DNA of 64,000 bases, from contig JBMORA010000063.1 in NCBI GenBank assembly GCA_049320885.1, positions 137,737-201,736 of the forward strand, written 5' to 3'. Under the pieces are notes generated by a model that saw only the letters and a list, made by a program, of their open reading frames with translations, ran no database searches and was not told the origin of the DNA. Each line of letters opens with the position of its first letter. Positions within the stretch are counted from its first letter, which is position 1. The position numbers were made by a program, and so were the translations under genes. This DNA comes from Thermodesulfobacteriota bacterium (GTDB lineage Bacteria; Desulfobacterota; Desulfobacteria; Desulfobacterales; SURF-7). This document shows positions 14,601 to 24,789 of this stretch, piece after piece.

Positions 14601-14705
14601 GGGATAGACAATGAAGCGTTGGACAGCGTAATCCGCCGTTCCATAGAGGATGAACAACCCCAGGAATATGGCCGGGAGCTTGGTTTTTATGGAGTTCAAG
14701 TTCAC
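11670..14705 (-). CDS. hybrid sensor histidine kinase/response regulator (CHASE4-HAMP-PAS-PAS-HisKA-HATPase-REC)
   Basis: It has a CHASE4-like periplasmic segment (DSLCHDWSAWDDTIEFV), a HAMP domain, two PAS modules, an H-box (GGIAHDFNNIL), a G-box (GKGTGLGLSLVHGIV) and a C-terminal REC (DLVISDVTMPYMTG). The proposed GTG start at 14705 overlaps the glgP stop as GTGA. The track start at 14912 would overlap glgP by about 210 nt. Confidence 0.85.
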   Translation of the reverse strand: MNLNSIKTKLPAIFLGLFILYGTADYAVQRFIVYPSFLALEHQEAVRDLNRCLQSLRREVYHLDSLCHDWSAWDDTIEFVRSMTPAYIETNLPVETFVTNKLNLICFYNEGGALVWGNMVHPDTGEQITRQDILPDQLPPDHPLVAWESIRKPLTEKSVIGVMMTQRGPLLVASRPIITSKNEGPVRGAVIMCRFLGRELVSALMAQAQVDFDIFPIGLEEFTGEKREVLQLMESGSRHIIRNADKDHLNIYGTFPDIDQKTALLLQATIPRKISRQGDITVRYAVSSIAAAAFFMLMIVLFLTRRILLDPIMKLIQHVQAIGTSGDLSARLNLRRMDEIGILADTFNQMLAKLQTKTMELEKVNQDLVEDVAKRRQAEEELGRAQALLTAAVEQTPAGIIIVDAPNLKLRIANKAAVEILGDLHPDQWEGFHPDGRLMTHDELPLLQAVKEGKIIQNAEIVIKRRDGEERWVLGNAAPVRDESGGIAAGVVVFPDITDRKRAMETLKRSEEKYRLLVENAQDAIFLLQNGHFLFGNPRTLELLGFTAEALSRTSLLELLHPDDAPAVLEHLAKCSRGEGIASPWTFRIVNPSKDVIWVQMNAVLISWEEYKAVLCFARDVTESKRMEKQLLQAQRMESIGTLAGGIAHDFNNILYPIIGYTEVAMRHLPEGDSRPRNYLERVLAAAGRAGELVQQILTFSRRSEHEMKPMLLHPVIKEGMKLLRASIPTTIEIVQDIDTDCRPVLGNPTQIHQIIMNLCTNAYHAMEEAGGRLEVSLKEVELGPEVARELIDTAPGRYARLTVQDSGCGISADIIGKIFDPFFTTKPEGKGTGLGLSLVHGIVKEHGGSLLVESEPGKGTVFTIYFPVFGKEKGLETEGAVLPLPTGTEHVLIVDDEPMIVEMLREMLEDLGYQVSSCNGSAEALEAIRARAGQFDLVISDVTMPYMTGDELAEQIRRIRPGLPVILCTGFSERIAPEKPLKAGAAAMIMKPVRQQTMAHVVRSVLDKST

Positions 14706-17209
14706 CTGCTTTTTTTGGATTTCAAATGGATGGGAACTTTTTCGATCCTCCAGATTCCATCGCAGTATTCCCGGATGGCCCGATCCGACGAGAACTGCCC
14801 CATGCGGGCGACATTCGCCATGGACATGCGCGTCCACAGTTCCGGGTCCAGGTATGTCCGGTTGACCCTGTCCTGGGCCTCGATGTACGCCTGATAATCC
14901 GCCAGAAGACAATAGGAATCATGATTCAGGAGGGATTCAACCAGGTTCCTGAACAGATCCCGGTCTCCGCCGGCCAGGGCTCCCGAAGCGATCAAATCCA
15001 GAACCTCGCGCAGCTGAGCGTTGTGCTCATAATACTCCCGCGGCCGGTAGCCCCGCGCGTGGAGATCCTGAATCTCATCGGCCGTGAGACCGAACAGGAA
15101 AAAATTGTCGGGCCCGACCTCCCGGCGAATCTCGACATTGGCTCCGTCCAGGGTGCCGATGGTCAGGGCGCCGTTCATGGAAAACTTCATGTTGCCGGTG
15201 CCGGAGGCTTCCTTTCCGGCCGTGGAAATCTGTTCGGAAAGATCCGCGGCCGGATAGATGGCGTGGCTGTTTTTGACATTGAAATCCGGAAAGAAGACGA
15301 CTTTCAAGCGTCCCCGGATATCCGGATCGTTGTTCACCAGCTCGGCGGTGGAGTTGATCAGCTTGATCATGAGTTTGGCCGTGACATAGCCCGGCGCCGC
15401 TTTCCCCCCGAAGATACATGTCCGGGGAGGCGCCTCCAGCCGGGGATCCCGCTTGAGTCTCAGGTACAGCGTCAGGATATGCAGCACATTCAAATGCTGG
15501 CGCTTGTATTCATGGATCCGTTTGACGTGGATATCGAAGAGGGAATGCGGGTCGACCGGGATACCGGTCCTTTTATGGATCAGGGCGGCCAGGGATTGCT
15601 TGTTGGTCAATTTGGCATTGCGCCATTCCGCGCGGAAATCGGGATCGTCCATGAATTCCTCGATGGCGTTGATCCGGCTGAGATCGCTGATCCATCCCCG
15701 GCCGATCCGGGAGGAAATCAGCTCGGTCAGGCAAGGATTCGCCAGGACCATGAACCGGCGCTGGGTAACGCCGTTGGTAACATTGGTGAACTTCTCCGGC
15801 CAGAGCCTGAAAAAATCCCGTAAAACATCCCGCTTCAGCAATTCGCTGTGAAGCCCGGCCACGCCGTTGATGGTATGGCTGCCGACGCAGGCAAGGTTGG
15901 CCATGCGCACATAGCGTTCTCCGGCTTCATCGATCAGGGACAGTCTTTCCGCGAGTCCGGAATCTTCCGGATATCGCTCCCGGACATCGGCCAGGAAACG
16001 GGCGTTGATCTCATGGATGATCTCAAGATGACGCGGCAACAGGCGCTGAAAGAGCGGAAGCGGCCATTTTTCCAAGGCTTCCGGAAGCAGGGTATGGTTG
16101 GTGTAGGAGAACGTGCCCTGCACGATCTCCCAGGCCGGCTCCCATTTCATACCGCGTTCATCGATGAAAATCCTCATCAGTTCGGCAACGGCGACGGCGG
16201 GATGGGTGTCGTTCAATTGCACGGCGTACTTGACGTGAAAGCTGGAGAGATCGGCTTTTTTCTGCTCATAAATCCGCAGCATGTCCTGCAGGGAGCAGGA
16301 AACGAAAAAATACTGCTGCAACAACCGAAGTTCCTTGCCCGCGGCCGGCTCATCGTTGGGATAGAGGACTTTGGTGATATTTTCCGACACCATCTTGTCT
16401 TCCACCGAACCGTAATAATCCCCCACGTTGAAGGCCTGAAGATCGAAGGATTCGCAAGCTTCGGCCTTCCACAGCCGCAACAGGTTGGCCGTATTGACGG
16501 CATACCCTAAAATGGGGGTGTCATAGGGGATGCCCCGGATAACCCGGTCCGGAATCCAGCGGACTTTATAGCGTCCATTCTCGTCATGATACGCCTCGGT
16601 TCGTCCCCCGGCCTTTACTTCCAGGGCCAGCTCCGGATGGGCGATCTCCCATGGATTTCCCAGGCGCAGCCATTTATCCGTGACCTCGACCTGCCAGCCG
16701 TCCTTGATTTCCTGATCAAATATACCGAATTCATAGCGGATGCCGTAACCGATGGCGGGGATGCTCAGGGTGGCGAGGGAATCCATGTAGCATGCGGCGA
16801 GGCGTCCCAAACCGCCGTTTCCCAGCCCGGGCTCCTCCTCTTGCTCGATCAGGCGGTCCAGATGGAGGCCCAGCTCCTTCAGGGCCCGGCGGGTTTGATG
16901 GTCGATACCGAGGTTGATCAAATTGTTGGCCAGATGAGGCCCCAGCAGGAATTCGGCGGAAAGGTAACACACGGTCCGGCTGGCCTTTTCGCGGTAGGTC
17001 TCGGCGGTGTTGATCCAGCGGTACAGCAACCTGTCACGCACGGTATAGGCCAGGGCGAGATAATAATCGTTGGGCGTGGCCACCGCCGGAAACCTGGCCT
17101 GATGATAAAACAGATTATCGATGAAATCCTGTTTGATGGCCTTTACGCTGCAGCCGGTGCGCGCGTTCTCCGGTTCCCGGTAAGCAGGTTTGACGGGTTT
17201 TACGGTCAT
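14702..17209 (-). CDS. glgP: glycogen/alpha-glucan phosphorylase
   Basis: It is 835 aa with GT35 hallmarks, including the PLP-lysine motif EASGTGNMKFSMNGALTIGTLDGANVE and LGNGGLGRLAAC. Confidence 0.93.
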   Translation of the reverse strand: MTVKPVKPAYREPENARTGCSVKAIKQDFIDNLFYHQARFPAVATPNDYYLALAYTVRDRLLYRWINTAETYREKASRTVCYLSAEFLLGPHLANNLINLGIDHQTRRALKELGLHLDRLIEQEEEPGLGNGGLGRLAACYMDSLATLSIPAIGYGIRYEFGIFDQEIKDGWQVEVTDKWLRLGNPWEIAHPELALEVKAGGRTEAYHDENGRYKVRWIPDRVIRGIPYDTPILGYAVNTANLLRLWKAEACESFDLQAFNVGDYYGSVEDKMVSENITKVLYPNDEPAAGKELRLLQQYFFVSCSLQDMLRIYEQKKADLSSFHVKYAVQLNDTHPAVAVAELMRIFIDERGMKWEPAWEIVQGTFSYTNHTLLPEALEKWPLPLFQRLLPRHLEIIHEINARFLADVRERYPEDSGLAERLSLIDEAGERYVRMANLACVGSHTINGVAGLHSELLKRDVLRDFFRLWPEKFTNVTNGVTQRRFMVLANPCLTELISSRIGRGWISDLSRINAIEEFMDDPDFRAEWRNAKLTNKQSLAALIHKRTGIPVDPHSLFDIHVKRIHEYKRQHLNVLHILTLYLRLKRDPRLEAPPRTCIFGGKAAPGYVTAKLMIKLINSTAELVNNDPDIRGRLKVVFFPDFNVKNSHAIYPAADLSEQISTAGKEASGTGNMKFSMNGALTIGTLDGANVEIRREVGPDNFFLFGLTADEIQDLHARGYRPREYYEHNAQLREVLDLIASGALAGGDRDLFRNLVESLLNHDSYCLLADYQAYIEAQDRVNRTYLDPELWTRMSMANVARMGQFSSDRAIREYCDGIWRIEKVPIHLKSKKSR

Positions 17210-17255
17210 AAGCGGATATCCTTGCAGGTAAGCCGCCCGTTATGCGGGCGGCGGT

Positions 17256-19934
17256 TCACTCCACCGGACGGCCTTCGGAATAGGAAACCGTCTCGACTAC
17301 CGGCATGTCACCCATGCCGTGCTCCGTATAGATCGGGATATCCGTCAGGCTGATCGCCCAGGACTCGTCCATCTCCAGCCCGCCGGGATCGTCGACCGAA
17401 AGCAGGAACAGACTTCTCTCCAGGGGTTTGACGACGTAGACCGCGCCGGTGGTTGTTTCCGTCAGCAGGGTGCCGGCCGGCAGGTTGATGATCTTATCCC
17501 GGATGGCCCGGGTCACGACCCACCCGGACTTTTCCAGTTCTTCATACAAATCCGGCAGCCCCATCATCCAGCCGTCATACCCCAGGGACAAAGTCCGGGC
17601 CTGTCCGGCGCCGTTTGTTAAGGCGATGTCATCGAACCTCAGGGGGTCGTCCAGCAGTTTGTAATCGTTCCCCTCCATCAGATAGGTCACCCCGCCCGCT
17701 CCCGAAGCGTCATATTCCCAGTTGAAGGACACGCTCTCGCCGCCGATGACCGCCTCAATCCCCCACAGCGCGGGCGCGATATCCCCCTTGGCGGCCAAGG
17801 GGACGCCGTTGGCATCGATATCGTTGTCGCCGATGCGGTCGTATACCAGCATCATATAATCCGGATGAGTCGGATCGGTGACGAACCGGTAGGTCGAATT
17901 GGCGTCCGGATTCCACTGGTCATAAAAAACCGTCGTGTTTCCTTCCGGTAACACGGACGCGAGGTTCACCGGATTGCAGGCCGTCTGGATTTCGTTTTTG
18001 ACGGTGATAACGCCGGCGCTTTTCCGGACCACATAGGCCGTTCCCTGCATGTCCATATACACTTCCAGTCCCTCCGGGAACAGGAACGCCCGGTCCGCGC
18101 CTTCCACGAATTTGGGCGTCCACGTGAATTCGTCGAAATAATCCAGCTGTTTTTCCACCCAGCCGACGGCGGCGCCTTTGTATTCAATGAAAATTCGGCC
18201 CCAGATATCGACCCAGAGCCGATCGACGCTGTCGGTATCGATGGGCACCCTGGGGAAGAACGGCTGTGCGATGATTCCCGAATCGCCCTGGATTTCTTCC
18301 GCCTCGTAAAAGCCGGCTTTGCCGCCATTCACCGCGGCGGCTTCCTCGTAAACGTAGATTTTTTCCTCCATGGTCTGCCAGTCCCAGCCCCGGATGGAGA
18401 CGGCTTTACCGGAACCGGTTGCACCGCCCACCAGGGTATTCAGCCCCACAGTCGCGTCGAAGTCTTCGAATTTTCCGGATGCGCAGACCGGAGGATCGGC
18501 GGCCCAGTCCATCCGGGAGCAATATTCCCAGGCGCCGTCGTTATAGAACAGGTTGTAGTTCTGATTGATCATGACCTCTGCGGGAATATTCTGGATATCG
18601 ATGAGATCGGCTTCCTGATAAGTCCTTTTCACCAGAACCCCGCCGAATGACCTTCCCACCGTATATTCCTCCGCCGGCCGGTTCGGCGGAAGATCTTCGC
18701 GGGAAACCACGATTCCCATGGAGACAGGGCTCCCGTCATGGGTCCAGATCTCGTGACGTCCCCGCCAGACGCCGTAATAGGCGTGCTTTTCGACGCCTTC
18801 TTCCGTGTAGCGGATGGGGAAACCGAAGGATTTGGTCTTCAGGACATCGTCGCCGCTTTCGGCCTGATACACGCCGTAGCGGTGGGTCATCATGACCATG
18901 TGATTTCTGTCCCGGTACTCCACCTCTCCGTCCTGGCCCTCCTGGACGGCCAGATAGCCGTCGTTGTAGGCATAAACGGCCGTGCGGTGGGGCACGCCCC
19001 CTGATTGATCGCAATCCGGACAGAAATAGGCGTCATAATCCGGATAGTAAATCTTCCCGTATCCGCGGGAGGCCGACCGGTACATCACGGCCTTGGTTTT
19101 GACATCCAGTCCCTCTTCCCCGATCTGTCCCATGCCCGACAATTTCTGATACAATCGGATTTTGGCGAATCCGTTTTGCGCCGGCCGGCAATCGGCCACG
19201 AAATAGTCTTCGTCGCCGATTTCATCCAGTTTGACGTTCATGTCCCATACACCGTAATCCTGATAGGTGCCGTCGGTGTTCAGCACCGGAGGAGAGTAAA
19301 TTCTGAATTCCGCCTTGATGACCGGCGTGGCGGATTCAGAGATTTTTTCAATCCAGGCCTGCACCAGCAGGTATGGTTGCTCACCGTCCGTCACCGCTTC
19401 GGATTGGACCAGCCAGTTCTCCAGTTTCTTCTGAGTGCGGCCCTCGTTTTTCTCCTCGACCGCCACCATGGCTCTGTAGGGTCCGTTGCCGATCTCCTTT
19501 TCGTATTCCGTCTGGTCGATGGCCCTCAGGATCTCCTCCAGCATGGCGAACTGTTCCAAGGTGTTTTCCTCGACATAGGTCCGGGTGACGGCGGTGGCGT
19601 AATCCGTTCCGGGATCAGCGGCGTCATGCGGAATCCCGTCCGCGGCTTCCATTCCGGAAGGAGATTCCGCCCCGCTCGATACCGGAACCGCCGACAGTTC
19701 GCTCGGCATGGTATACCGCGCCAGCTGGCTCCGGACCTCATCGGGATTGACGGGAACCGTGCCGCTGTCGCTCAATACATTGGCGCCGTGGTCGACGCTG
19801 CAGGCGTTCAAGGCCGCGACCGTCAGCAGCAGCAATCCAAGACGGACAGCCCGTCCGGCAAGGCGCAACAGCCCACCGGATTCGTCATTCCCAAATGAAT
19901 CATTGCCCGCCGGTTTCCATCCTTGTAACATCAT
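17256..19934 (-). CDS. large acidic lipoprotein of unknown function (892 aa)
   Basis: A lipobox is present (LLLLTVAALNAC|S). The ATG at 19934 is preceded by GAGGGAGG. I recognise no catalytic or repeat motif. The protein is rich in aromatic and acidic residues. Confidence 0.6.
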   Translation of the reverse strand: MMLQGWKPAGNDSFGNDESGGLLRLAGRAVRLGLLLLTVAALNACSVDHGANVLSDSGTVPVNPDEVRSQLARYTMPSELSAVPVSSGAESPSGMEAADGIPHDAADPGTDYATAVTRTYVEENTLEQFAMLEEILRAIDQTEYEKEIGNGPYRAMVAVEEKNEGRTQKKLENWLVQSEAVTDGEQPYLLVQAWIEKISESATPVIKAEFRIYSPPVLNTDGTYQDYGVWDMNVKLDEIGDEDYFVADCRPAQNGFAKIRLYQKLSGMGQIGEEGLDVKTKAVMYRSASRGYGKIYYPDYDAYFCPDCDQSGGVPHRTAVYAYNDGYLAVQEGQDGEVEYRDRNHMVMMTHRYGVYQAESGDDVLKTKSFGFPIRYTEEGVEKHAYYGVWRGRHEIWTHDGSPVSMGIVVSREDLPPNRPAEEYTVGRSFGGVLVKRTYQEADLIDIQNIPAEVMINQNYNLFYNDGAWEYCSRMDWAADPPVCASGKFEDFDATVGLNTLVGGATGSGKAVSIRGWDWQTMEEKIYVYEEAAAVNGGKAGFYEAEEIQGDSGIIAQPFFPRVPIDTDSVDRLWVDIWGRIFIEYKGAAVGWVEKQLDYFDEFTWTPKFVEGADRAFLFPEGLEVYMDMQGTAYVVRKSAGVITVKNEIQTACNPVNLASVLPEGNTTVFYDQWNPDANSTYRFVTDPTHPDYMMLVYDRIGDNDIDANGVPLAAKGDIAPALWGIEAVIGGESVSFNWEYDASGAGGVTYLMEGNDYKLLDDPLRFDDIALTNGAGQARTLSLGYDGWMMGLPDLYEELEKSGWVVTRAIRDKIINLPAGTLLTETTTGAVYVVKPLERSLFLLSVDDPGGLEMDESWAISLTDIPIYTEHGMGDMPVVETVSYSEGRPVE

Positions 19935-19950
19935 GGTGCGCCTCCCTCTT

Positions 19951-21243
19951 TCAATTGCTGTAGGATGCGGAAATATAGACCCGGAGGTTCTGGATATCCG
20001 CATCCTGTATCACCGGGGTACTACTGATGGCCTGGGCCTCGCCCGCGCCGAATGCGTAAGAGACCCCCAGGGTAACGCTCGTCAGCCGGTGGAACAGGGT
20101 GTAGCTCAGACTCAGTCCGTAAATGTCGATATGCTCTTCCTGGTTGACTTTCCCGGACTCCAGATCCGGCGTGTTGGCGAAATCCGTGTAGAATCCCGCC
20201 CGGACGGCCATGTCGTCCCGGAAATAATATTCAGTGCCCAGAAAGACGTTGCACACGGACTCCTTTTCATCCGCCGAGCTGTGCCAGCCCACATCGCCCG
20301 AGAACAACAGGCTGGGGGAAACGAAATAGGCGGCGCCGAATGTCAGGCTCACGGGCAGGGTCGGTTTGTCGCTGGTATTTTCGCTCTTGAAATAGATCGT
20401 GTCCGGATCGCTGAAATCATAGCTCAGCCCGTCGATATTGACCGGCTGCGCCGCCGCCGTGTTCCGGTAGATGTCATGCCGGGTGGTCTCGTTGTTGAGC
20501 ACAACCACCTGGGACATGGAAAGCCCCAGGGCCAGTTTTTCCATGGGTTCCCAGATGGCGCCCAGGGAAGGTCTGATACCCCAGTCGTTGCGGGTTTCAT
20601 AATAATTGATCAGAATATGCTGCCCCTGGTTGAACTGGATCAACTGGTTGCGGATGATTTCCCGATCCCTGAAATAGGCGTATACCGTCGCCCCCATGGC
20701 CAGGGAATCGGAAAAGCGGTAGGCGTAGGAGGGTCCGAACAGATAGGTCCGGTCACTGTCGTTGATGTTGATCATGACGGTATCCGCCGGGTTGTCGGCG
20801 AATTCCGTGCGGATATCCTGGAAATACTGTTTCTGGCGGCGCTGGATGGAATCCGTCACCGCATAGGACATACCGAGCATGCCGTTGCCCCCGAACTGCC
20901 GCACCAGACCGAAAAAATTCGGCAGCAGGCTGGAAGACACCTGCTCCCAGTCCTGGGTCCCGCCGTCGGTTCCGGTCAGCACGTCCCGATAGGTCTTGAC
21001 CTCCGAATTATAGGCGTTCACACTGGCGGAAAGGCTGAGATTCGGCGCAAAGGCAATGCCCGCGGGATTGTAAAAGCAACCCGCGGGATCATCCGCCAGC
21101 GCCGTGTAGGCCCCTCCCATTCCAGCAGCCCGGTCGCCGATGATCATGTTGACGTAATGCTGCTCGTCCGCGACCGAAACGCTTGACGCCAGGAGCCACA
21201 GCAAGCCGGACACCATCCATTTTCTAGTGGATAACATTTTCAT
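19951..21243 (-). CDS. outer-membrane beta-barrel protein (FadL/PorV-like)
   Basis: It has a signal peptide (LLWLLASSVSVADE) and the N-terminal motif GDRAAGMGGAYTALADDPAGCFYNPAGIAF, typical of FadL/PorV-type barrels. Alternating beta-strand patterns run to the C-terminus. The ATG at 21243 follows GGAGAGG. Confidence 0.6.
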   Translation of the reverse strand: MKMLSTRKWMVSGLLWLLASSVSVADEQHYVNMIIGDRAAGMGGAYTALADDPAGCFYNPAGIAFAPNLSLSASVNAYNSEVKTYRDVLTGTDGGTQDWEQVSSSLLPNFFGLVRQFGGNGMLGMSYAVTDSIQRRQKQYFQDIRTEFADNPADTVMININDSDRTYLFGPSYAYRFSDSLAMGATVYAYFRDREIIRNQLIQFNQGQHILINYYETRNDWGIRPSLGAIWEPMEKLALGLSMSQVVVLNNETTRHDIYRNTAAAQPVNIDGLSYDFSDPDTIYFKSENTSDKPTLPVSLTFGAAYFVSPSLLFSGDVGWHSSADEKESVCNVFLGTEYYFRDDMAVRAGFYTDFANTPDLESGKVNQEEHIDIYGLSLSYTLFHRLTSVTLGVSYAFGAGEAQAISSTPVIQDADIQNLRVYISASYSN

Positions 21244-22054
21244 GGAACCTCTCCGCAACCGTTGCGTTTTTCATCTGCGCCAGGCCGCCCGCTGTCAGCA
21301 CCGCATCCATTGCCGCGAATCTGACCCGATGAAGCGGGTAATCTCCCTGGTAGTTCCGATCCTCGACCTCAAACCGCCCGGCCTCCGTCAGGAATTGCTT
21401 GAGGGCGGCGGGATCGTATCCAGCCGAGGCCGCCATGAGCATGCCGATACGATCGGCCTCGATTTCATCCGTCACCTTATACCCTTCCCGGAACAGAATG
21501 TCGGCGGCCCGGTCCATGGCCTGCTCCAGGGACTTCACGGCGCCGCCGGTGGCGCCGCCGATCAGGCCGGCAATACCGGCCACGGCCGAACGGTCTTCTC
21601 CTTTGATATTCAACTCCCGAATGACGTGCCGCTCCGTAATATGGGCGATTTCATGCCCCAGCACACCGGCCAGCTGGGCTTCGTTGGCCATTTTCAGCAA
21701 CGCTCCCCGGGTGATGAACACATACCCGCCCGGAGCCGCATAGGCATTGATATCATCGGAAGCAAGCACCCCGAAATAATAGATCAGTTCCGGCCGTCCG
21801 GAATGCAGGGCCGTGGCCCGGCCCACCAGGTTGACATAGCGGTTCAGTTCCGTATCCTCATCCAGGCCGTAGGCGCCGAGGATCCTGGCCGCCAGTTCCC
21901 GTCCGAAGAGGATCTCCGCCTCGATGGCTTCCGCCTCCCCGGAACTTTGGGCCATGCTCGAAATCCGTTTCCGCCCGTCACCGGCAACGGCGGGGATGGT
22001 CGGAAGCCAGACGATCAGCAGTAAAATCGACATCCAGTTACCGGTGCGTTTCAT
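21224..22054 (-). CDS. secreted M48-family zinc metalloprotease
   Basis: It has a signal peptide, the HEIAHITERH (HEXXH) motif and a downstream EIEADRIG third-ligand region. It lacks the multi-TM HtpX architecture. Confidence 0.8.
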   Translation of the reverse strand: MKRTGNWMSILLLIVWLPTIPAVAGDGRKRISSMAQSSGEAEAIEAEILFGRELAARILGAYGLDEDTELNRYVNLVGRATALHSGRPELIYYFGVLASDDINAYAAPGGYVFITRGALLKMANEAQLAGVLGHEIAHITERHVIRELNIKGEDRSAVAGIAGLIGGATGGAVKSLEQAMDRAADILFREGYKVTDEIEADRIGMLMAASAGYDPAALKQFLTEAGRFEVEDRNYQGDYPLHRVRFAAMDAVLTAGGLAQMKNATVAERFHENVIH

Positions 22055-22628
22055 GGGCCGTCCCTTCCTGTAAAAACATCAGCGCCTGGCTTTCGGTGAT
22101 GTCCACCGATTCCATTTTTTCCAGGGCCTCATAATCCAGCCGGTGCCCGGAGTGAATCCGCAGGCGGTTTTCCCTCAACCCCCTGGCCGCCGCCACGGAG
22201 GAATAGGCCGAGGATCTTCGCCGGGATCGGTCGGAAAACAATTTATATTTATTCAGCAGGGACGTGAAGGCGCCGTATATATCCCGCTTTTTCACCGGCG
22301 GCTTGACCGCCACCTGGAAGGAATAGATCCATCCGGACCGGCCTTGATGGGACACCTGATGCCAGTATTCCGCTTTTTTGAGGCCGGAGATCCGGGTACC
22401 CTGTTTCAGTTCAAACAGCTTTTCGGAACCGGTATCCGGCATCAGGTAGACCTGGGCCTTGACGCTGGCGACATACAGATCGTAAGCATTACACCGGGGC
22501 GGCGGCAACGCCGTCATGGCAGCCACGACCGCAGCCATGAGGATCAATTGGGGATATGCCGCCCCCCCCTTGCGGATTGGCCGGTCATTTTGCCGGTCAT
22601 TTTGCCATTCATTTTGATTGATGCGCAT
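22038..22628 (-). CDS. exported SH3-like domain protein
   Basis: The proposed start is MRINQNEWQNDRQNDRP... at 22628. A hydrophobic segment (LILMAAVVAAMTAL) follows, then an SH3_3-like segment (VKAQVYLMPDTGSEKLFELKQGTRISGLKKAEYWHQVSHQGRSGWIYSF). The track ORF to 22934 would overlap the cyclase gene by about 330 nt. Confidence 0.45.
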   Translation of the reverse strand: MRINQNEWQNDRQNDRPIRKGGAAYPQLILMAAVVAAMTALPPPRCNAYDLYVASVKAQVYLMPDTGSEKLFELKQGTRISGLKKAEYWHQVSHQGRSGWIYSFQVAVKPPVKKRDIYGAFTSLLNKYKLFSDRSRRRSSAYSSVAAARGLRENRLRIHSGHRLDYEALEKMESVDITESQALMFLQEGTAHETHR

Positions 22629-24789
22629 AGAACCCGTCCCAATCCTCCGGCGGAGGATTTTCCAGATAGTGTCGACACCGCGCAATAAAAAGTTCCGCCG
22701 GGACATCCCGGGGACGGAGGGCCCGAATCCGCTCATACGTCGCAATCGCTTCCGGAAACCGACGTTCGCGGTACTGCGAGAACGCCTGCTCGGAAAGCGC
22801 GACCACCGTCCGGAGCTCCGGGTCCACGGAGCCGGTTTCATCCAGAACTTCAAAAATGGCGATGGGTTTTCGCTTGCCCTTGACTTTGACGTAATCCGCC
22901 AGCCGGCAGACGATGCGATCCTTGATCCGGTCATGGGTGTCCTGGCTGACCAGGATGGTGCAGCCGTAGGTCTTGGTAAGGCCTTCCAGCCGCGAGGTCA
23001 GATTGACGCTGTCGCCGATCACCGTATAGTCCAGCTTTTTTTCCGAGCCGATGTTCCCCAGGATCACTTCCCCCGTATGGATCCCGATGCCGATCTTCAG
23101 GGGCGGCATTCCTTCGGCCTCGTTTTCCCGGTTCAGTTCCTCCAGGGCCCGGCGCATCTGCAATGCCGATAGGACCGCCCTGTGAGCGTGATCTTCGATT
23201 TTCACCGGCGCCCCCCAGAAGGCCACAATGGCGTCGCCGATGAATTTATCCAGGGTTCCCTGGTGCTCGAAAATGATGGCCACCATTTTGGACAGGTAAC
23301 GGTTCAGCAGGGCCACCACCATTTCCACCTGGTGGGTTTCGGAAATCGAAGTGAAACCCCGGATATCGGAAAAAAAGACCGTCAGTACTTCCTTGGAGCC
23401 CACCTCGGCCCGGAAATAGTCTTCCTTGTAGTGTTCCAGCACATCCCGGAGCATGGCGGGCGAAACATACTGACCCAGAATATTGCGGATCCGCCTTCTT
23501 TCCCGGCCCTCGGTGGCCATGGTAAAGACAAATCCGGAGATATAAGCCGACAGAAAGGCGACGGATGGCGCCGTTACGTTCATTACCCAGTTCCTTCGGA
23601 ACAGGTACAGACACACCCCGTAAAACAAGGCCATCACCAGAACCGGAACCACCGCCCGCAGGGTAACATTGCGGAAGAACAACACTGCCCACAGCGTCAA
23701 CGCCGCCGCCAACAATACCGTCGGCGCGGTGATGGGAAAAGCGGCAAACCGCAGGAAATCTCCGGTCATGATATTTGCGTAAACCGATGCTTGCAGCATT
23801 ACGCCCGGCAATATCGACCCCAGGGAGGTCATTTTCAGATCCTGGGCGCCCGCGGCGCTGGCACCCACGAAAACGGTTTTGCCCTTGAATTCCTCCGGCC
23901 GGAACGGCAGGTCGGTATGGTTTCCCTGATCCAGTTCCCATTTGGTTTTCAGGACCCCGCTGATGGAAAAGGCCGGGTACCGTCCATATAGATGAAGATA
24001 ATATTCGCCGTCTTTCGTCAGGGGAATGCGAATATCCCCCTCCGCTTTCCGGAGAAACAGATCGCCTTCCCGAAAAAAGGCGCTGCGGCTGCCGGTGTTG
24101 ATCAGAGCGGCTGCCAGTCCCAATGAAGGCAAGCGGTTGCCCCGGTAATCGAACACCAGGGCCTCGCTGCGGAAAACCCCGTCCCGATCCGGCACGAAGG
24201 TGACCACGCCAACACCGGCGGCGTGGGGATACAATTCTTCAAAGGGCAGATAATACTGGTTGAAAGGGATCAGCTCGGCGGCTCCCTCCATGGAAAGGGA
24301 AAAACGTTCGGTGAAATCCCGGGGCAGCGGCTCATTTTGGGTGGAATCCGGGTCATCCATCACCAGCTGGGCCGCATGGAAAACCATGGCCGCTTCCCGG
24401 GTCGACTCCGCCAGACGGCGGTCCGGTTCGCTCAAGCCGTCCGCCGCATCGAGGCCGACCTTCTGGTGCTGGGTGAACAGAATATCCATCACCACGGCCC
24501 GGGCCCCGCAATCCCTCAGGAAATCGATGAGTTCCGCATGGACATCCCGGGGCCACGGCCAGCGGCCCACCAGCGGATCCAGGGCATGCAGGGAGGCGTC
24601 GTCGATCAGGACGATGGCGATATCATCCGGCAGGGGGGTTTCCGACCTTGTCAGCTGCATGCGGAGGTCGATGCTCTTCCGTTCGAGGATATCCAGGAAT
24701 CCCGAACCATCGCCGACCATGGCGAGCAGACTGATCAGCAGGATGATCCAGACGCTTTTCGACAATTTCTGTTGCTGGGGCAACGGCAT
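22609..24789 (-). CDS. CHASE2 sensor domain adenylate/guanylate cyclase (class III) with TPR-like tail
   Basis: CHASE2 signatures are present (GRWPWPRDVHAELIDFLRDCGARAVVMDILF), followed by 3 TM helices. The cyclase core contains TVFFSDIRGFTSISE, GDAIVAFWGAP and GIGIHTGEVILGNIGS. Confidence 0.88.
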   Translation of the reverse strand: MPLPQQQKLSKSVWIILLISLLAMVGDGSGFLDILERKSIDLRMQLTRSETPLPDDIAIVLIDDASLHALDPLVGRWPWPRDVHAELIDFLRDCGARAVVMDILFTQHQKVGLDAADGLSEPDRRLAESTREAAMVFHAAQLVMDDPDSTQNEPLPRDFTERFSLSMEGAAELIPFNQYYLPFEELYPHAAGVGVVTFVPDRDGVFRSEALVFDYRGNRLPSLGLAAALINTGSRSAFFREGDLFLRKAEGDIRIPLTKDGEYYLHLYGRYPAFSISGVLKTKWELDQGNHTDLPFRPEEFKGKTVFVGASAAGAQDLKMTSLGSILPGVMLQASVYANIMTGDFLRFAAFPITAPTVLLAAALTLWAVLFFRNVTLRAVVPVLVMALFYGVCLYLFRRNWVMNVTAPSVAFLSAYISGFVFTMATEGRERRRIRNILGQYVSPAMLRDVLEHYKEDYFRAEVGSKEVLTVFFSDIRGFTSISETHQVEMVVALLNRYLSKMVAIIFEHQGTLDKFIGDAIVAFWGAPVKIEDHAHRAVLSALQMRRALEELNRENEAEGMPPLKIGIGIHTGEVILGNIGSEKKLDYTVIGDSVNLTSRLEGLTKTYGCTILVSQDTHDRIKDRIVCRLADYVKVKGKRKPIAIFEVLDETGSVDPELRTVVALSEQAFSQYRERRFPEAIATYERIRALRPRDVPAELFIARCRHYLENPPPEDWDGFYAHQSK

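Follow-up and report, generated by a model that had tools for sequence, protein, structure and literature searches.

The element considered here is a block of five genes on the minus strand of a 64,000-nucleotide stretch of DNA from a Thermodesulfobacteriota bacterium of the order Desulfobacterales (assembly GCA_049320885.1, contig JBMORA010000063.1, positions 137,737 to 201,736). This whole stretch is called the window. In the direction of reading the genes code for a predicted adenylate cyclase with a CHASE2 sensor domain, an SH3 protein, an M48 protease, a FadL-type outer-membrane barrel and a large lipoprotein (Table 1). The first four genes are one cassette which is inherited together across two phyla. 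The fifth, the lipoprotein gene, is not a core part: it is facultative and lineage-specific and takes a slot behind the barrel whose content varies. The junctions cyclase/SH3, SH3/M48 and M48/barrel are overlaps of 20, 17 and 20 nucleotides (nt), respectively, and a gap of 16 nt separates the barrel gene from the lipoprotein gene. Purine-rich, Shine-Dalgarno-like stretches precede the starts of the M48, barrel and lipoprotein genes; that of the lipoprotein is an AGGGAGG ribosome-binding site. A preliminary description of this DNA had listed the same five minus-strand genes with these overlaps and this gap, and the coordinates of the open reading frames (ORFs) match exactly. The domain identities proposed there, i.e., CHASE2 cyclase, SH3, M48, FadL-like barrel and a lipoprotein without domains, are likewise correct according to Pfam and NCBIfam, in the case of SH3 according to AlphaFold2 and Foldseek.

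Table 1. Genes of the block and the conserved hinge of the SH3 protein (positions in the window; aa, amino acids)
Feature	Position	Strand	Remarks
CHASE2 cyclase gene	22609-24789	minus	ORF of 726 aa
SH3 protein gene	22038-22628	minus	196 aa, ATG at 22628
Most conserved stretch of the SH3 protein	22176-22223	minus	residues 136-151, R-x-R-x-S-...-A-x-A-R-G-L, hinge between SH3 domain and tail helices
M48 protease gene	21224-22054	minus	276 aa
FadL-type barrel gene	19951-21243	minus	430 aa, ATG at 21243
Lipoprotein gene	17256-19934	minus	892 aa, ATG at 19934

Related loci were obtained by scanning 185,579 species genomes for motifs and by looking up two metagenomic homologues. They originate from Desulfosudaceae, Desulfobacteraceae, metagenome-assembled genomes (MAGs) of a Desulfobacterium, a Gallionella and a member of the Geobacteraceae, a contig binned as an archaeon, and metagenomic contigs. 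SH3, M48 and barrel genes follow each other in this order in all eleven loci, and the cyclase gene precedes SH3 in eight of them. In two congeneric genomes all five genes are present in unchanged order, with identities of 59-81%. Across the loci with conserved order the identity of the SH3 protein falls to 32-39%. At locus L020 the contig ends 320 nt before the SH3 gene. This 2.9-kb contig (JAEOSO010000138.1) is binned as 'Candidatus Borrarchaeota archaeon'; its SH3, M48 and barrel genes are bacterial, with 41-57% identity to those of the window, and it probably is a mis-binned bacterial contig.

The barrel served to examine how firmly the genes are connected. We used an even sample of 400 Thermodesulfobacteriota genomes and considered homologues with at least 37% identity as close. 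In this phylum sample 14 genomes besides the source carry a barrel homologue. All of the 12 close ones adjoin M48, SH3 or cyclase genes; two of these 12 loci are rearranged and have the barrel gene on the other strand. No cassette genes adjoin the two distant homologues, whose identities are 31-32%. An even sample of 350 genomes from the class of the Gallionella MAG gave a corresponding picture: all 12 barrel matches lie directly after an M48 gene, and the SH3 gene is present as well in ten of the 12. Taking both samples, 24 of 24 close homologues are in cassette context, i.e., this barrel subfamily is cassette-specific. At least 20 independent loci have cyclase, SH3, M48 and barrel genes in this order with their ORFs overlapping or abutting, and thus the packing of the cassette genes is more than chance. 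Co-occurrence outside the source genome, on which the preliminary description had staked its proposal beforehand, was found for cyclase, SH3, M48 and barrel in two phyla.

The cyclase matches the CHASE2 profile of Pfam (PF05226) with 173.9 bits (6e-51; cut-off 26.3) over residues 19-369 and the Guanylate_cyc profile with 97.1 bits (1.3e-27). An N-terminal transmembrane helix is followed by the periplasmic CHASE2 domain, three further transmembrane helices, the cyclase domain and a short TPR-like C-terminus; in the translation the CHASE2 domain is flanked by hydrophobic segments, as befits a CHASE2 sensor. Class III cyclases require two metal-binding aspartates, a lysine which specifies adenine, a threonine in place of the second specificity aspartate, and an asparagine and an arginine which stabilize the transition state. 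The protein has all of them, as D475, K515, D519, T589, N596 and R600, and none of these varies among 12 cassette cyclases. These residues characterize the protein as a putative class III adenylate cyclase of subclass IIIb. In the PDB, CyaB, CyaC and Cya2 match best, CyaB and CyaC being of class IIIb; these matches cover the cyclase domain only, and no CHASE2 structure was matched in this search. The enzyme looks active and should produce cyclic AMP (cAMP), because the specificity residues are Lys and Thr according to the rules established for class III cyclases. The preliminary description had left the choice between cAMP and cyclic GMP. By the same two residues the former is the predicted output and the latter is ruled out.

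The cassette cyclases are a lineage of their own. They form a clade with 100/100 support on a stem of 1.65 substitutions per site, and five CHASE2 cyclase paralogues of the source genome fall outside of it; long branches leave the mutual order of the paralogues unsure, their exclusion from the cassette clade is firm. Across phyla the cassette cyclases share 44-48% identity versus 30-33% with the paralogues in the same genome. In all, the source genome codes for eight CHASE2 proteins. At C38:40864-44040, outside of the window, the gene of a 312-aa M48 lipoprotein immediately precedes that of a further CHASE2 adenylate cyclase (716 aa); an SH3 gene was not detected at this pair. Through it M48 and CHASE2 are linked a second time, independently of the cassette.

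The protease scores 86.4 bits (2.9e-24) with Peptidase_M48 of Pfam. The zinc-site motif H134-E135-I-A-H138 and the downstream E197, part of an E-x-x-A-D motif, are invariant in 28 homologues, as is characteristic of peptidase family M48. The best PDB matches are BepA (6SAR, 6AIT) and an M48 protein of Geobacter (3C37). A signal peptide without a lipobox is present and the protein is predicted to be soluble in the periplasm. It corresponds to the protease domain of BepA without the TPR domain. We reject orthology with BepA: the NCBIfam model NF052400 gives 106.7 bits at a cut-off of 570 and is matched at positions 10-225 of 483 only, the TPR domain is absent, and the protein ends at 276 aa. With the invariant D/K/D/T/N/R set of the cyclase and the HExxH plus Glu of the protease both enzymes of the cassette look active.

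The barrel matches Toluene_X/FadL of Pfam (PF03349) with 37.7 bits (1.1e-09) at a cut-off of 29.7. Its mature N-terminus is extremely conserved and displays the motif G-x-G-G-A-Y..D-D..N-P-A; N59-P60-A61, the NPA motif of FadL, is invariant in 27 sequences. A search of the PDB with the single sequence gave nothing useful. A profile of the 27 barrels matched exclusively chains of the FadL family (3DWO, 1T16 and others; E about 1e-3), and its segment ..DP.G.YYNPAG.. aligns with the NPA region of FadL 3DWO. Profile and NPA hatch segment place the barrel into the FadL/OMPP1/TodX family. Affiliation with PorV and type IX secretion was dismissed, as the NCBIfam scores are far too low (PorV_fam 41.6 bits, cut-off 90; T9SS_OM_PorV 19.2 bits, cut-off 250). 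Searched against 1.84 billion cluster representatives (50% identity), the barrel profile retrieves 520 proteins at E<=1e-30. The cassette barrel is thus not confined to one genome.

For the SH3 protein, which is predicted to be secreted, the Pfam family SH3_3 is found with 24.9 bits (2.3e-05), slightly below the cut-off of 27. The AlphaFold2 model has an SH3 core with a predicted local confidence (pLDDT) of about 96 and tail helices with 55-82. Foldseek aligns about 60 residues of the model with SH3b domains from cell-wall hydrolases, namely NlpC/P60 enzymes and endolysins (probability 1.0, root-mean-square deviation 1.3-1.8 Å), so that the core is predicted to have an SH3b fold. The most conserved part of the protein is the hinge listed in Table 1. 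R136, R138, S140, A146, A148, R149, G150 and L151 are invariant in 15 sequences; in the model this region has low confidence (pLDDT 55-61). An N-terminal extension ahead of the signal peptide (22562-22628), which includes a Q-N-D-R repeat, is confined to the genus (window, L018 and L019), and orthologues beyond the genus start about 23 residues later than the protein of the window.

SH3 protein and protease are the tightest unit of the cassette. Examining 1.5-kb flanks of the 29 best SH3-profile matches of the phylum sample, we found M48 adjacent in 25, a CHASE2 or cyclase gene in 13 and the barrel in 10. Larger regions were inspected around twelve pairs which lack a full CHASE2-cyclase gene in the flanks. 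None of the twelve regions contains the gene of a CHASE2 adenylate cyclase; one codes for a CHASE2 protein in which no cyclase domain is recognizable. Other pairs of this set adjoin genes of giant CHAT-TPR proteins, Lnt or PrmA. At L143 (7719-14909) SH3-M48 is located directly downstream of a 2396-aa protein with TPR and CHAT domains. ORFs of similar size occupy the same position before SH3-M48 at L150 (63-7292; 2409 aa) and L149 (77-6709; 2210 aa); the domain scan was made for L143 only. The SH3 proteins of CHASE2-free pairs keep C-terminal helices and a shorter '(R/K)G(L/I/F)' motif, e.g., ..S-I-R-G-L.., ..G-G-R-G-I.., ..A-G-K-G-F.. or ..G-V-R-G-L... Because this RGL-type motif persists in SH3-M48 pairs without CHASE2, the tail motif, as judged from the alignments, tracks the protease and not CHASE2. 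We infer that it may be a site of recognition or cleavage by the M48 protease.

The lipoprotein had been described as devoid of recognizable domains, and so it appears: neither Pfam nor NCBIfam gives a match, and a lenient Pfam scan of 52 homologues found no family common to more than two of them. The lipobox is L-N-A-C and the 52 homologues have the consensus L-x-x-C-G-G-G, which marks the protein as a predicted bacterial lipoprotein. Nor does the protein stand alone: its full-length homologues number at least 117, from Desulfobacterales, Nitrospirota, Gammaproteobacteria and other sources, all of them unnamed and without a Pfam match. The AlphaFold2 model has good confidence and is almost entirely composed of β-strands (pLDDT 84, pTM 0.79). 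Foldseek against the PDB returned no fold match (best E 2e-3, TM-score below 0.13). The top matches, DDB1, GH32 and GH43, with TM-scores of 0.07-0.13 and probabilities of at most 0.2, were deemed meaningless, and we discarded the notion of a glycoside hydrolase or a β-propeller enzyme. The most distant homologue (1000 aa, 30% identity) follows directly after a complete type II secretion (T2SS) operon (T2SS F to N; L030, 628-11107), and the family might include T2SS cargo. In six loci the gene directly upstream of the lipoprotein gene codes for a polytopic membrane protein which is small (about 199 aa) and has no Pfam match (L032 4599-5198, L043 2475-3074, L039, L045, L046 and L091); in two of the six, L032 and L043, this pair is divergent from the cassette cyclase. 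The sister genus has distant lipoprotein-like matches with 27-30% identity over the N-terminal half (L005-L008/L012-L015) and no cassette genes nearby.

The position after the barrel varies with lineage. At L171 a GAF plus HD_5 (HD-GYP-like) protein starts 4 nt after the barrel, and similar N-termini exist in three more genomes (the set of post-barrel genes is L167, L170, L171 and L172). In Desulfobacteraceae the slot holds an HDOD protein and a metallo-β-lactamase-fold protein (L023 12551-14491, L024 6484-8282). A match to a response-regulator receiver domain occupies it in one genome, and it is empty in Gallionella. The GAF-HD_5, HDOD and metallo-β-lactamase-fold proteins are possible effectors or degraders of cAMP. 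At L025 the barrel is followed by two ORFs, of 166 aa and of 630 aa, the latter with a weak DUF6055 match; the SH3 tail motif is degenerate at this locus. In the window an SDR gene is located 139 nt upstream of the five-gene block.

That cyclase, SH3 protein, protease and barrel constitute one functional unit is, in our view, highly probable. With more reserve we lean towards viewing the block as a trans-envelope receptor cassette which consists of the four co-inherited genes and one lineage-specific extra. The FadL-type barrel would relay a cue to the periplasm, be it a hydrophobic ligand or the condition of the outer membrane. There the SH3 protein would present its exposed tail to the M48 protease. 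Intact or processed, the SH3 protein would then bind to CHASE2 and switch the synthesis of cAMP by the cyclase. The proteolytic step, M48 acting on the SH3 tail, is the tentative part of this scheme and, taken as described, somewhat less likely than not. In its most specific version, the ligand or hatch state of the FadL channel would govern processing of the tail of the SH3b adaptor, and the adaptor or a fragment thereof would be the direct ligand of CHASE2, with the lipoprotein, of a novel fold, extending the input side in Desulfosudaceae. Stated in such detail the route is rather doubtful.

The role of the lipoprotein has been viewed differently. The preliminary description had united all five genes in a single obligate machine in which barrel and surface lipoprotein would capture a signal, the protease would process it and CHASE2 would read it. 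The short gap to the lipoprotein gene with its own ribosome-binding site agrees with this, as does its position after the barrel in Desulfosudaceae genomes (47-68% identity) and on two metagenomic contigs. Altogether nine loci have the lipoprotein gene close to the cassette: in five it follows the barrel on the same strand, in two it is divergent from the cyclase (L032, L043), in one it lies 3.4 kb upstream (L072) and in one it is convergent with the barrel (L099). These nine loci are scattered over several separate positions on the lipoprotein tree. With the cassette occurring in about 3.5% of the genomes sampled, this is far more than chance would give. However, in the phylum sample only two genomes have the lipoprotein, both without the barrel, and none of the 14 other genomes with a barrel carries it. 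In 87 lipoprotein loci the neighbors are mostly unrelated and the gene often looks monocistronic; further, other lineages fill the slot with different proteins or leave it empty. The link between lipoprotein and cassette exceeds chance, yet it is not obligatory, and we consider an obligate five-gene machine improbable. Of the five-gene unit envisaged at the outset, the joint inheritance of four genes has stood; the lipoprotein, with most of its homologues elsewhere, drops out. Alternatively, it could belong to α-glucan metabolism on its other side and lie between two units by chance. A glycogen phosphorylase gene, glgP, starts 46 nt after the lipoprotein gene (window 14702-19934), followed by the ORF of a CHASE4 hybrid kinase; glgP also follows at L018, a GH77 4-α-glucanotransferase gene is located 37-96 nt downstream at L051, L052, L053 and L056, and at L029 the lipoprotein gene lies within a glgB/glgC/GH57/GH77 cluster. 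Yet the four GH77 loci are a single clade on the lipoprotein tree and may represent one inherited arrangement, GlgP and MalQ reside in the cytoplasm but the lipoprotein is exported, and it shows no signature of a glycoside hydrolase or of carbohydrate binding; its Foldseek matches to GH32 and GH43 have TM-scores below 0.13. A place in α-glucan metabolism is thus quite improbable. As for the receptor cassette, the lipoprotein probably is co-expressed with it in the source lineage. It could also work with it there, a point on which we incline slightly to the negative.

The principal competitor of a receptor cassette concerns the envelope itself: SH3 protein and M48 could be a BepA-like pair for quality control or biogenesis, the barrel its client, and the cyclase only co-regulated. 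The closest characterized relative of the protease, BepA, is a β-barrel assembly-enhancing protease; the barrel always adjoins M48, SH3-M48 pairs exist without CHASE2, and the best structural matches of the SH3b domain are cell-wall enzymes. However, most SH3-M48 pairs are without the barrel, therefore the pair is not a dedicated barrel chaperone. The cassette has a cyclase clade of its own, inherited with it across phyla, M48 is paired with CHASE2 a second time, independently, in the source genome, and the protease is devoid of the TPR domain of BepA and scores far below the cut-off of the BepA model. An envelope-maintenance pair accompanied by a bystander cyclase is thus unlikely, though it is the alternative to be taken most seriously. 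Several observations indeed weigh against a receptor cassette. SH3-M48 pairs commonly occur without CHASE2 or barrel; the pair may serve a general envelope function, the cyclase being a mere companion. The Geobacteraceae MAG (L025, 8250-15081) has SH3-M48-barrel without a cyclase and with a LeuA-like gene upstream instead. FadL channels are transporters of hydrophobic compounds and are not known as signal transducers. A scan for promoters and terminators within the block gave counts no better than those of shuffled sequence, and the gene block of the window contains no gene of a cAMP receptor.

Parts of the proposed receptor cassette have counterparts in known systems. In FecA-FecR-FecI and in CpxP/DegP-CpxA a barrel or a periplasmic adaptor relays information from the envelope to a signaling protein of the inner membrane, with proteolysis as the switch. 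None of their protein families is related to those of the cassette, and the output is a sigma factor or a two-component system, not cAMP. Closer in output is the case of Sinorhizobium meliloti, whose CHASE2 adenylate cyclases CyaK, CyaD1 and CyaD2 require the outer-membrane protein NsrA (PMC7529298; PMC13001267). Inner-membrane CHASE2 cyclases are combined there with an outer-membrane β-barrel in the perception of an external signal, with cAMP as the output. The outer-membrane input of the cassette might be likened to NsrA-CyaK or to FecA-FecR. We excluded an NsrA-type partner nonetheless: NsrA has about 1200 aa with the barrel in the C-terminal half (residues 600-1200; PMC7529298), whereas the barrel of the window is of FadL type and 430 aa long. 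Further, neither an SH3 protein nor an M48 protease is reported in the NsrA pathway.

Also in S. meliloti, the M48 protease JspA, a lipoprotein with M48 and LysM domains, lowers the level of the periplasmic inhibitor ExoR; JspA and LppA act on ExoR-ExoS/ChvI (PMC10659215). Common to both cases are an extracytoplasmic M48 protease, a periplasmic regulator, an inner-membrane sensor and a module of the peptidoglycan-binding type, LysM in JspA and SH3b in the window. By analogy the logic of the cassette could be regulated proteolysis of a periplasmic co-sensor, as with ExoR/JspA-ExoS or CpxP/DegP-CpxA. The differences are considerable. The sensor of S. meliloti is a histidine kinase without CHASE2, in JspA, a lipoprotein, the protease is fused to LysM, ExoR belongs to the Sel1-repeat proteins, and an outer-membrane barrel is not part of the system. 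BepA (YfgC) of Escherichia coli is the best match of the protease domain by sequence and in the PDB, is periplasmic and shares the zinc site, HExxH plus Glu; the protease of the window has 276 aa compared to 487, lacks the C-terminal TPR domain and is paired with an SH3-tail protein. The barrel in turn resembles FadL, TodX and TbuX (PF03349), transporters of hydrophobic compounds, in Pfam score, in the exclusive FadL matches of its profile and in the N-terminal motif. Yet it represents a distinct subfamily (about 1e-3 to solved FadL structures) and is encoded beside M48 and SH3 genes, not beside genes of degradation or β-oxidation.

The preliminary description knew of no described system of this composition, which agrees with the literature: we found no account of a cyclase-SH3-M48-barrel cassette in searchable full texts on CHASE2 with M48 or SH3 and in CHASE2 papers since 2021, a coverage which leaves out most subscription journals. 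The searchable literature also names no direct ligand and no solved structure of CHASE2. The cassette would be a variant of receptor signaling via accessory proteins and coupling to the outer membrane. New are the complete specificity of the barrel for the cassette in the two samples, the dedicated cyclase clade, the tail motif which appears to track M48, the variable fifth slot and the lipoprotein family. The latter, defined by the 892-aa protein, is sizeable and is without a Pfam model or a fold match in the PDB. CHASE2 is a widespread extracytoplasmic sensor, and the cassette supplies concrete candidate partners for it. Should the signal indeed run through the SH3b adaptor, CHASE2 would have in this protein, whole or in part, the direct ligand long sought for the domain.

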